Virus genome (UHGV): UHGV-0240017
Length of the DNA stretch: 64,000 nucleotides
Source: a virus
Strand: one strand, 5' to 3'
Below the pieces are notes generated by a model. It was not told the DNA's origin, made no database searches, and worked only from the letters and a program-made list of their open reading frames with translations. Each line of letters begins with the position of its first letter. Position 1 is the stretch's first letter. Of the stretch, positions 8,671 through 9,895 are shown one piece after another. A program made the translations under genes and the position numbers.

Positions 8671-8697
8671 GGGGGTGGTAGCAACACCCCCTTTATT
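8671..8697 (+). terminator. plus-strand intrinsic terminator (GGGGGTG-GTAGCAA-CACCCCC then TTTATT)
   Basis: 7-bp GC stem followed by T-run, about 100 nt after the 7003..8565 stop. Confidence 0.55.
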
Positions 8698-8707
8698 AGT
8701 TAGTAAC

Positions 8708-8869
8708 TTATCTCCTTACAGGTGGTTGGTGAACATTGTGGTTGTTAACCGTTTTCGGTGCCGCAACGAGGCCGAGACGAACATATTCGTCCATGCGTTG
8801 GTTAAACTGAATTTGTTTCTCACGATTTCGCATCGCGGTATTGAACATCTGTATTTGATATTCGTTCAT
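8708..8869 (-). CDS. small basic protein, paralog 1 of a triplicated family (53 aa)
   Basis: ATG 7 nt after AAGGT; N-terminal half similar to paralogs 2 and 3. Confidence 0.5.
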   Translation of the reverse strand: MNEYQIQMFNTAMRNREKQIQFNQRMDEYVRLGLVAAPKTVNNHNVHQPPVRR

Positions 8870-8927
8870 TTTCATTACCTTTTGTAATGTTGTAAAAACG
8901 TCAACAACTTTATGCGTTGACACCGTA

Positions 8928-9020
8928 CAGTAGAGACTGGTGGAACAGCCTCTACTGCTTTAACTTCTCTTTGGAAAAGTTAAAGCTAAGAAAAGGGGTG
9001 GTGGTGCACCCCTTTTTATT
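8928..9020. repeat. structured repeat unit A: 10-bp stem, 9-bp stem, GC hairpin plus T-run (candidate ncRNA or leader element)
   Basis: CAGTAGAG..CTCTACTG, CTTTAACTT..AAGTTAAAG, GGGGTG..CACCCC TTTTTATT; same architecture as units B and C. Confidence 0.55.
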
Positions 9021-9059
9021 ATACCTACGACCACCATCTCGGCAGGTTACTGTACGAGG

Positions 9060-9091
9060 AGGAGGGGCGTGTCAGCGTCCCTCCTTTATTT
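9060..9091 (+). terminator. plus-oriented hairpin AGGAGGG-N12-CCCTCCT followed by TTTATTT
   Basis: 7-bp stem and T-run; abuts the stop codon of the minus-strand small gene 9093..9266. Confidence 0.4.
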
Positions 9092-9092
9092 G

Positions 9093-9266
9093 TTAGTAGT
9101 GTTCACTCCTCTTTTCAGTGAATATCTGCGTGAAACGGTTGGTAGACGGTTTTAACCGTTTATCCATGCCGAGCTGACTATACTTGTAGATACGTTGCTG
9201 TAAATTGGTCTTTGCTGCACTCTGTTCTGCAAGCATTTTGTCAGTAAAGTAGTAACCATTGTTCAT
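9093..9266 (-). CDS. small basic protein, paralog 2 (57 aa)
   Basis: ATG with AGAGGG SD; shares QLG..KRLKPS.N...QIFTE.RS..Y with paralog 3 using synonymous codons. Confidence 0.55.
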   Translation of the reverse strand: MNNGYYFTDKMLAEQSAAKTNLQQRIYKYSQLGMDKRLKPSTNRFTQIFTEKRSEHY

Positions 9267-9328
9267 GGTAAGCCCTCTTTGTAGGGTGATTAAAGAAATC
9301 CACTACGGAAACGTGGTGGTGCTGTAAA

Positions 9329-9420
9329 GGGTACGCTGGTGCTACAGCGTACCCTGCTTTAACTTCTCTTTTCGAAAAGTTAAAGCTTTGATAAGGGGTG
9401 TGACGCCACCCCTTTATTTT
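9329..9420. repeat. structured repeat unit B (same three-hairpin architecture)
   Basis: GGGTACGCTG..CAGCGTACCC, CTTTAACTT..AAGTTAAAG, GGGGTG..CACCCC TTTATTTT; stem 1 sequence differs from unit A but stays paired. Confidence 0.55.
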
Positions 9421-9422
9421 AT

Positions 9423-9593
9423 TTAGTAGTTACTTCTCCTTTCGGTGAAGATTTGTACTCGAGGATTATTAGAAGGTTTAAGCCTTTTATTTAATCCTAG
9501 CTGTTGAACTTCTCTTAATCGTTCATTAAACCTCGCTTGTTCTGCATAGCTGTTCGAGATAGAAGTAAAGATACGTGTATTGTTGTTAGTCAT
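9423..9593 (-). CDS. small basic protein, paralog 3 (56 aa)
   Basis: ATG with GAGG SD; conserved C-terminal block shared with paralog 2. Confidence 0.55.
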   Translation of the reverse strand: MTNNNTRIFTSISNSYAEQARFNERLREVQQLGLNKRLKPSNNPRVQIFTERRSNY

Positions 9594-9649
9594 GTTAAAA
9601 CCTCACACGAGTTGGGTATTAAGCTATTACGTACCGGTAATAGCGACAA

Positions 9650-9740
9650 GTAGGGACTGCTGGTACAGTCTCTACTGCTTTATCTTCTCTTTCGAAAAGA
9701 TAAAGCGCCTAAGGGGAATGTTGGCGCACTCCCCTTTAGG
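9650..9740. repeat. structured repeat unit C; preceded by a 22-nt palindrome at 9623-9644
   Basis: GTAGGGACTG..CAGTCTCTAC (one G-T wobble), CTTTATCTT..AAGATAAAG (A/T swap compensated on both arms), GGGGAATG..CACTCCCC TTTAGG. Confidence 0.5.
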
Positions 9741-9858
9741 TTGTTACCTCCTTTCAACTATCAACCGGGTGTTTCTTGGGTATGCAACCGACGAAACAGC
9801 AGTTCATGTTTCATGAACTTATCCCCTATGTTGAATTTGCGAAAATAAATAAAGTGTA

Positions 9859-9895
9859 CCCCTAATCCCGAAAAGGATTAGGGGTTGCTTTTATT
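9859..9895. terminator. hairpin CCCCTAATCC-CGAAAA-GGATTAGGGG flanked by A and T runs
   Basis: 10-bp stem; overlaps stop of 9891..10706. Confidence 0.6.

Follow-up and report, generated by a model that had tools for sequence, protein, structure and literature searches.

Repeated stem-loops that alternate with small genes invite comparison with several described systems. The repetitive extragenic palindromic (REP) sequences and bacterial interspersed mosaic elements (BIME) of enterobacteria are dispersed in hundreds of copies, integron attC sites have the core sequences RYYYAAC and GTTRRRY, and ldr/rdl, ibs/sib and hok/sok are tandemly repeated type I toxin-antitoxin loci. Stable hairpins between the cistrons of one operon can moreover set differential mRNA stability. 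Jumbo phages of the phiKZ/SPN3US-like type rely on RNA polymerases of their own for transcription, and to our knowledge their post-transcriptional control is largely unknown. From T4-like phages, promoter-early stem-loop (PeSL) cassettes have been described (PMC2839356, PMC4122927). Here we analyse 64,000 nt of the virus genome UHGV-0240017 (the window), in which a module of about 120 nt with four hairpins stands in three copies within an array of small minus-strand genes (ORF1 to ORF3) next to a DnaB-like helicase gene. The module is a real structured element, undescribed, lineage-specific and tied to one gene family. In our preferred reading, to which we give a probability of roughly 45%, it would be an intercistronic element of a gene-sense (minus-strand) polycistronic mRNA in a read-through operon.

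The module contains a 90-nt repeat found at 8929-9018, 9328-9417 and 9649-9738 with 61-78% identity. Its 18-nt core CTGCTTTAWCTTCTCTTT is present at three sites in the window, where chance alone would give 0.12, and a covariance model recovers only three sites in 64 kb, each with E ~1e-15 and all inside one 0.85-kb stretch of the array. A complete 222-kb relative has one module, and neither there nor in the window are copies found outside the array. Compared with shuffled sequence, each unit folds with a z-score of -5.4 to -9.1 on either strand. Read in gene sense, the stop codon is followed by 6-15 nt of A-rich sequence, a GC hairpin of 7-11 bp, 2-6 nt and the AU-rich stem 2 (13 bp), which directly abuts stem 1 (11 bp, 6-nt loop); after another 3-9 nt come stem 0 (6-8 bp), 25-35 nt with a Shine-Dalgarno sequence, and an ATG. 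GC hairpins start at the same distance of 6-15 nt past the stops of ORF1, ORF2, ORF3 and the remnant of a fourth gene, ORF4. The initial annotation, made from the sequence alone, had described three copies of a three-hairpin element with stems of 10 and 9 bp; the copies and stems are real, but the hairpins number four, stem 1 has 11 bp and stem 2 has 13 bp in gene sense. On the plus strand, stem 2 consists of 10 bp, a C·A mismatch and 2 bp, whereas the minus strand forms 13 continuous pairs with a U·G wobble. A palindrome at 9623-9644, listed there as a separate feature, exists and is the stem 0 of unit C; each unit has one, and those of units A and B are unrelated in sequence. Two extra hairpins reported beside the copies were found as well and are terminator-type GC hairpins after ORF1 and ORF2. 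The former is kept in relatives with compensatory loop and stem changes, and in one relative (L051) the hairpin type of the latter is the first hairpin of a full module.

An Rfam search, which the same annotation had suggested, returned nothing for the region, whether gathering or E-value thresholds were applied (best sub-threshold match 24.6 bits vs a gathering score of 176), leaving it unassigned to any known family, and ARAGORN finds no tRNA or tmRNA there. A phage-wide regulatory motif was rejected because the core pattern and the covariance model match this array only. The stem 2 pattern occurs at 46 other metagenome loci, none of which matches the covariance model with more than 35 bits, compared with at least 76 bits for the phage copies, and these loci are therefore regarded as unrelated to the module. 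Pairing of the end of the upstream ORF (GAAAGGAGAAGTAAC) with the 5' arm of stem 2 was also dismissed, as the likeness is explained by paralogy of the ERRSN C-termini.

Variants were collected from five IMG/VR loci, about 20 contigs with ORF3 orthologs and a metagenome pattern scan, which together gave 36 unique modules, all on jumbo-phage contigs of 200-228 kb or on short fragments of such phages. Across stems 2 and 1 of 21 unique copies, 98.6% of 502 cells are standard pairs, whereas shuffles give 89.7% and sliding of the partner column gives 41-56%; 9 of 24 pairs have changed on both sides. The covariation score of 0.292 (0.116 when shuffled) is reached by none of 500 shuffles. Among 25 unique variants of stem 1, comprising several unrelated sequences, 266 cells are Watson-Crick pairs, 6 are G·U, 2 are A·C and 1 is of another kind; stem 0 occurs in at least seven and the GC hairpin in at least five unrelated sequences, all of them paired. 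The compensatory change from TTTAAC/GTTAAA to TTTATC/GATAAA and the wholly different, still paired stem 1 of unit B, both already read from the window, thus hold, both being greatly extended by the related phages, in which conservation of pairing had been named as the check. To judge from this covariation, the structure of the module is under selection.

Two modes of selection can be told apart. In three of the hairpins, namely stem 1, stem 0 and the GC hairpin, otherwise near-identical phages often have loops that are exact reverse complements of each other. Stem 1 provides the pairs TTGTAG/CTACAA, TAGCAC/GTGCTA, CCTATA/TATAGG, TTGGCG/CGCCAA, CGGTAA/TTACCG and TTTCGC/GCGAAA; the GC hairpin has TGACAG/CTGTCA, and the stem 0 of unit B has TTTC/GAAA. 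At least seven independent flips have occurred in stem 1. Inversions of 4-6 nt in the loops were located at 8940-8945, 9339-9344 and 9660-9665 of the window and at the homologous positions of L049-L123. Such minute inversions are the expected product of hairpin-mediated template switching, and their frequency makes the locus a clean natural record of this process in phage DNA. By these flips, the loop sequences of the three hairpins are shown not to be under selection. The sequence of stem 2, GCUUUAACUUUUC-GAAA-GAGAAGUUAAAGC, is by contrast almost invariant, with 11 unique forms in 30 unique segments of stems 2 and 1, and this extends over lineages whose ORF3 synonymous sites are about 50% diverged. 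The one change often seen in it replaces A-U by U-A in a compensatory manner, a U·G pair never varies, and the loop is purine-rich in gene sense (GAAA, GAAAA, GAAUA, CAAA, CGAA) and never flipped. Since stem 2 is near-invariant and its loop keeps its orientation, it appears to be a strand- and sequence-specific site, while the other three hairpins would be structural. With about 36 natural variants of a four-hairpin element, in which three hairpins evolve as pure structure and the fourth is kept in sequence, wobble and loop orientation, and with its tie to one family of small basic proteins, the locus is a compact, naturally replicated test bed.

The three small minus-strand ORFs are paralogs, as had been proposed: ORF2 and ORF3 are 42% identical (BLASTP, E=2e-13), and ORF1 matches ORF3 at E=8e-5. 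The shared KRLKPS stretch with its codon pairs cgg/agg, tta/ctt and ccg/cct was found as described, and the selection at the protein level deduced from it is borne out by orthologs across lineages, where the ratio of non-synonymous to synonymous differences (pN/pS) is 0.03-0.36 at pS 0.2-0.56 (ORF1, 0.17-0.18 at pS 0.42-0.49 against the L050 and L071 orthologs; ORF2, ~0.2; ORF3, 0.03-0.36). By these ratios the small ORFs are real genes under purifying selection. Frameshifted and read-through forms occur in relatives, as is expected for dispensable genes in flux. The window proteins are hydrophilic and basic, with a net charge of +4 to +6. From a 47-sequence alignment, AlphaFold2 predicts one amphipathic N-terminal helix (residues 2-35, predicted local distance difference test score 80-91) followed by a disordered basic tail, and this single-helix model is too simple for a fold search. 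Pfam and PHROGs gave no match for the window ORFs. The family is confined to SPN3US-like jumbo phages: two very large protein searches recovered it from nowhere else (63 clusters in one, 14 representatives at 50% identity in the other). SPN3US itself encodes gp194 and gp195 (YP_009153366, YP_009153365; phrog_18219), which are likewise small tandem paralogs, flanked as in the window by the helicase gene and the 271/286-aa gene, and which have in common with the window proteins the N-terminal helix and a motif ...KQ..F(N/Q)QR.... The window ORFs have no direct hmmscan match to phrog_18219 at E<=1; the profile of the window lineage aligns with it at a hhalign probability of 90.6% (E=1.3e-6), over 26 columns only. 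The SPN3US spacers differ in that their hairpins are of other kinds and lack the stem 2 motif (best covariance-model match E=0.38). The array genes are probably expressed early.

Table 1. Features of the small-gene array and its surroundings in the window (MFE, minimum free energy; strand "." for features without a strand)
Feature	Position	Strand	Remarks
DnaB-like replicative helicase gene, 520 aa	7003-8565	+	3' end 76-82% identical to SPN3US-like jumbo phages
GC hairpin, terminator type	8670..8692	.	15 nt past ORF1 stop; T-run on plus strand, facing convergent helicase gene
ORF1, 53 aa, basic	8708..8869	-	last array gene; paralog of ORF2 and ORF3
Module A	8900..9016	-	stem 0 8900-8921, stem 1 8929-8956, stem 2 8957-8986, GC hairpin 8991-9016 (bidirectional terminator type); gene-sense MFE -54.9, z -7.35; covariance model 83 bits
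ORF5 remnant	9025..9058	-	last 10 codons (...SYSNLPRWWS*); from comparison with relatives
GC hairpin after ORF2 stop	9058..9087	.	T-run on plus strand
ORF2, 57 aa, basic	9093..9266	-	paralog of ORF3 by BLASTP
Module B	9300..9414	-	stem 0 9300-9319, stem 1 9328-9355, stem 2 9356-9386, GC hairpin 9393-9414; gene-sense MFE -60.6, z -9.09
ORF3, 56 aa, basic, net charge ~+6	9423..9593	-	from ORF list, pN/pS and AlphaFold2
Module C	9623..9740	-	stem 0 9623-9644, stem 1 9649-9676, stem 2 9677-9706, GC hairpin 9708-9740; gene-sense MFE -63.1, z -7.86
ORF4 remnant	9741..9814	-	internal deletion leaves MKHELLFRRLHTQETPG*
Bidirectional terminator hairpin	9858..9885	.	after 271-aa gene; upstream boundary of array
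271-aa gene	9891..10706	-	C-terminal zinc-ribbon-like motif; upstream of array in all relatives
Promoter-like motif TCAGATATATATTAC with 5'-UTR hairpin	10961..10975	-	nearest recognisable promoter able to feed the array in gene sense

The array varies between phages. Among about 20 relatives, the stretch from the 271-aa gene to the helicase gene measures 687-1319 nt, the window having the longest and fullest version, and shortening proceeds by gene loss, with each phage lacking different members of a pan-array ordered ORF4 or ORF6, module, ORF3, module, ORF2, module, ORF5, module, ORF1. ORF4 is intact (52 aa) in L050, L052 and L073 and ORF5 in L051 and L062. Viable relatives differ in their number of modules, from 0 to 4, and the locus has two related small genes in SPN3US (gp194, gp195) and none in phiEaH2. 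Several deletion junctions lie at short direct repeats (microhomology) outside the hairpins, e.g. TTCAACA. There are also mosaic modules in which the GC hairpin of one type is joined to the stems of another, a hybrid stem 2 with arms from different types and a resulting A·A mismatch, and joins of ORF4 to ORF1 via a single module (L052, L073). Both illegitimate deletion and homologous exchange therefore reshape the array, which shows gain, loss and reshuffling of accessory small genes in jumbo phages in a manner comparable to the hyperplastic regions of T4.

The PeSL cassettes resemble the module in being short, repeated intergenic stem-loops between small variable ORFs of a hyperplastic region, and in both cases close relatives differ by indels or replacements, with the repeats as points of homologous exchange. 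The length range, the mosaics and the L052/L073 joins given above agree with such recombination joints, although several deletions fall outside the module. PeSLs, however, combine a terminator with an early promoter and occur at many genome sites, whereas the module consists of four hairpins at one locus with one gene family. It is without a recognisable promoter (best position weight matrix (PWM) score -26.5) and, in the window as in the 222-kb relative, occurs in this array only. A closer PeSL analogue in this phage is its own cassette of TCAGATATATATTAC and a 5'-UTR hairpin, often placed after a terminator T-run and distinct from the module.

As in intrinsic terminators and REP/BIME-type elements, the GC hairpin directly follows the stop and is flanked by A-rich and T-rich runs, and a GC-rich stem-loop immediately downstream of the gene is what an intrinsic terminator would show. 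Unlike REP sequences, the module is locus-specific and includes the sequence-conserved AU-rich stem 2, which is not a terminator; three copies within 0.85 kb of the window and one in the complete relative are no dispersal of the REP/BIME kind. Integron attC arrays likewise have small ORFs, imperfect palindromes with structure kept over sequence and a varying cassette content. Stem 2 (CTTTAAC...GTTAAAG) is one position off the attC core and its frequent variant CTTTATC/GATAAAG loses GTT; moreover, unlike in attC, the module helix is continuous without extrahelical bases and deletion junctions are mostly microhomologies. The 225 features annotated in the complete relative (NZ_CP173450.1) include no integrase or recombinase, and with the core site not kept either, integron-like cassettes were rejected. 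Tandem type I toxin-antitoxin loci (ldr/rdl, ibs/sib, hok/sok) share with the array repeated ORFs of about 50 codons, a structured RNA and an opposite-strand terminator. The small proteins, however, are hydrophilic and basic without a membrane segment, and this system was rejected because they are not hydrophobic; sigma-70 and PWM scans recognised no antisense promoter on the plus strand of the array, where a TATG is present in module A only. By this comparison, the module would work most like a terminator/stabiliser spacer in a hyperplastic cassette array.

In the preferred reading, transcription would start at the promoter-like motif at 10975, and the transcript would pass the 47-aa and 271-aa genes and read through leaky hairpin terminators into the array. 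The GC hairpin after each stop may serve as a partial bidirectional terminator, an insulator and a block to 3' exonucleases, and stems 1 and 0 would stabilise or delimit the downstream cistron; both stems could be purely structural, as their sequence and even their loop orientation are free. Stem 2, whose 13 bp, U·G wobble and purine-rich GAAA-type loop are kept while synonymous sites diverge by 25-50%, might be a strand-specific recognition hairpin for a protein or nuclease. Being repeated, the module could double as a homologous-recombination substrate that removes or reshuffles cassettes, which parallels the role proposed for the PeSL cassettes of T4-like phages (PMC2839356, PMC4122927). 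If it does control mRNA stability, processing or translation, it would count among the first cis-regulatory RNA motifs of this phage group to be supported by covariation.

Folding points to the gene-sense strand. Its MFE is the lower one in 31 of the 36 unique modules (means of -57.4 vs -52.9 kcal/mol), and the RNAalifold consensus reaches -39.4 kcal/mol in gene sense vs -29.1 kcal/mol on the plus strand. What is an invariant U·G wobble in stem 2 when read in gene sense becomes C·A on the plus strand, variants of the L053 and L062 types have additional U·G pairs in gene sense, and the ratio of G·U to A·C in stem 1 is 6:2. The gene-sense strand is thus favoured but not proven, given the relatedness of the sequences and the large share of the signal that a single conserved wobble contributes.

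Several points count against an intercistronic role in gene sense. The strand signal stems largely from that single invariant position, the Wilcoxon p of 1e-6 is inflated by the relatedness of the sequences, and a count of independent events gives only about 15 for G·U and 7 for A·C. T-runs (at least five T in eight) are stronger on the plus strand, where they follow 16 of 18 unique GC-hairpin variants compared with 8 of 18 on the gene-sense side; those of module A are bidirectional, and modules B and C are weak in the gene-sense direction. Where gene-sense U-tracts are good, as in module A, L073 and L103 (L070 also has a good T-run on this side), they should terminate transcription before ORF1, yet ORF1 is selected, and the array may contain promoters of an unrecognised class. 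Finally, the first gene of each array has no upstream module, and in L050 and L070 ORF3 is followed by stems 1 and 0 alone, which in L070 stand directly before an intact ORF2; expression therefore does not strictly require the module.

On the strength of the T-runs, the initial annotation had offered small plus-strand RNAs or antisense regulators as possibilities. The runs are present and indeed stronger on that strand, but such RNAs do not follow from them: this phage generally uses bidirectional terminators composed of A-run, hairpin and T-run, also at junctions where both minus-strand genes are co-directional (4119-4142, 11108-11135, 18487-18508), the T-run switches sides in relatives, and the plus strand is the less stable one in most variants. 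Its other option, conserved leader structures, agrees with the reading that we prefer. We accordingly consider it quite unlikely that the modules encode plus-strand RNAs of about 100-130 nt that end at the GC hairpin and T-run and act as cis-antisense of leaders or as trans-acting small RNAs, although the plus strand also folds strongly (z -5.4 to -7.2). A TATG at 8910-8913 in the stem 0 loop of module A, kept in A-type relatives, corresponds to the core of phiKZ late promoters (PMC7598289), but modules B and C have none on the plus strand, and no match to the conserved promoter motif exists on either strand of the array. In unit B, the plus strand has GAAA as its stem 0 loop, but this loop is flipped to a gene-sense GAAA in L114 and L123. 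Transcribed from the plus strand, stem 2 would keep its conserved C·A mismatch (two in L062-type copies), and a type I toxin-antitoxin mode of action fits poorly with hydrophilic, basic proteins. As little credit goes to a speculative variant in which stem 2 would be the RNA operator of the adjacent small basic proteins, by the logic of an arginine-rich peptide on a boxB-type hairpin or a coat protein on its operator, or in which the modules would be plus-strand antisense RNA genes. If the operator version were true, a nucleus-forming jumbo phage would carry autoregulated, cassette-borne RNA-binding proteins, and either version would constitute a new class of phage riboregulatory cassette.

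Two further explanations place the function in DNA. The modules might be terminator-promoter cassettes of PeSL type, where stem 2 is or overlaps a DNA promoter or operator of an unrecognisable class, each gene forms its own unit, and stems 1 and 0 belong to the 5' UTR. This would account for the restriction of sequence conservation to stem 2, which is AT-rich like the weak phiKZ middle-promoter motif (PMC7598289), and for the continued selection of ORF1 behind several GC hairpins with good gene-sense U-tracts; transcripts from the known-type promoters of the phage also begin with a 5' hairpin. Unlike a promoter class, however, the motif occurs nowhere else in the window or the 222-kb relative, stem 2 does not resemble the conserved promoter motif, and it is missing before the first array genes and after ORF3 in L050 and L070. 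A DNA palindrome also gives no reason for the T/C asymmetry (U·G) or the fixed loop orientation, and the compensatory A-T to T-A change and the G·U variants fit RNA pairing better, so this explanation is unlikely, if the least so among the alternatives. We are more doubtful still about palindromes without any RNA role, be they cruciform or single-stranded hairpin sites for binding, priming or recombination, or selfish recombinogenic repeats. The repeated reverse-complementation of the loops of stem 1 (at least seven flips), the GC hairpin and stem 0 does imply hairpin extrusion and template switching in DNA, mosaic modules attest recombination inside the repeats, and the array adjoins a replicative helicase gene. 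An essential site, on the other hand, is excluded by a copy number of 0-4 in viable relatives, most deletion junctions are short microhomologies outside the hairpins (e.g. TTCAACA), the complete relative has no annotated integrase or recombinase, and the asymmetry of G·U vs A·C together with the fixed stem 2 loop would be unexpected for duplex DNA. A replication origin was rejected on the same copy number and because GC skew has no inflection at the locus.

As to how an operon would be transcribed, k-mers searched de novo in the complete relative brought out a conserved promoter-like cassette of an AT-rich stretch, TCAGATATATATTAC, CTAGGTGAG and a 5'-UTR hairpin, which precedes start codons by about 60-70 nt. 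The cassette occurs about 13 times in that relative and is common to SPN3US (L001 6744(-)) and phiEaH2 (L002 7613(-)). In the window its clear sites are on the minus strand only, with cores at 10975 and 19230 and weaker variants at 60082, 46476, 60162, 4089 and 51651; the one at 10975 precedes the genes for 47 and 271 aa and has its equivalent in the same place in SPN3US and phiEaH2. Between 8560 and 9900 on both strands, the best PWM score is the above -26.5, compared with +18 to +59 at real sites, and a sigma-70 scan of the region remained at background level. A T4 MotA-type promoter was considered since a plus-strand TGCTTTA resembles the MotA box, and rejected as inspection found no -10 element at the right spacing; this type is further disfavoured as the phage has its own polymerases. 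A phiKZ-type TATG late promoter was also rejected, YTTATGYGT not being enriched (3 vs 2.7 expected). Early promoters of jumbo phages are AT-rich, highly conserved motifs of about 10 nt centred near -10 (PMC7598289), and by analogy TCAGATATATATTAC is probably the early promoter of this phage group, read by the virion RNA polymerase. For leaky terminators, the related phage 201phi2-1 offers a reported precedent, its terminators far outnumbering its promoters (PMC11512511). The simplest model would then make the array the distal part of a unit starting at 10975 and reached by read-through of the hairpin at 9858-9885; the 271-aa gene probably shares this transcription unit.

Other hairpins were noted in the surroundings. 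Near-identical terminator hairpins of the form TTACCCTACTCC...GGAGTAGGGTAA occur at the convergent junctions 28917-28944 and 34277-34304 of the window and again after the helicase region of phiEaH2 (L002 4244-4268), a recurrence that suggests sequence-conserved terminators, as are reportedly present in phiKZ and 201phi2-1. Directly after the helicase stop, a plus-strand block at 8566-8700 is conserved from the window phage to SPN3US and phiEaH2 and includes a hairpin GGGGAGCTTCGGCTCCCC (8571-8588), an A9 run (8620-8628) and the terminator hairpin at 8670-8692; TTATGCGTC at 8597-8605 contains the TATG core of phiKZ late promoters. The block might encode a plus-strand RNA some 95 nt long, or it might be a 3' processing region of the helicase mRNA. 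Between two minus-strand genes at 42056-42091, overlapping and mutually exclusive GC hairpins (CCCCTCTT...AAGAGGGG and AGAGGGGC...GCCCCTCT) could form an alternative-structure switch.

The window itself belongs to an SPN3US-like jumbo phage, as indicated by the similarity of its helicase 3' end (76-82% identity) to SPN3US-like jumbo phages of Salmonella, Escherichia and Erwinia and by a gene order of major head protein, helicase and minus-strand gene block that is the same in SPN3US and phiEaH2; the small-gene array sits between the helicase gene and the 271-aa gene. Among phage collection isolates, none is closer than about 78% to the window phage. Near-identical contigs of about 220 kb (L053-L061 among them) are nevertheless frequent, both in metagenomes from the gut and elsewhere and in assemblies of Escherichia and Shigella; one relative has been deposited as a circular 221,873-bp 'plasmid' in the complete genome of an E. 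coli urine isolate (NZ_CP173450.1, L073-L078). The lineage thus seems to be common yet uncultured or unrecognised, and it possibly persists in a carrier state. Elsewhere in the window, a group I intron lies among minus-strand ORFs at 56415-56732 (-) (Rfam RF00028, 56.9 bits, E=8.6e-12). In NZ_CP173450.1, 2 kb at 151405-153492 (L077 ~1405-3492) are without an annotated gene and adjoin a tRNA-Ile gene; inside this gene-free stretch, at 152640-152740 and, as far as checked, outside the homologous range of the window, stands a palindrome of about 100 nt.

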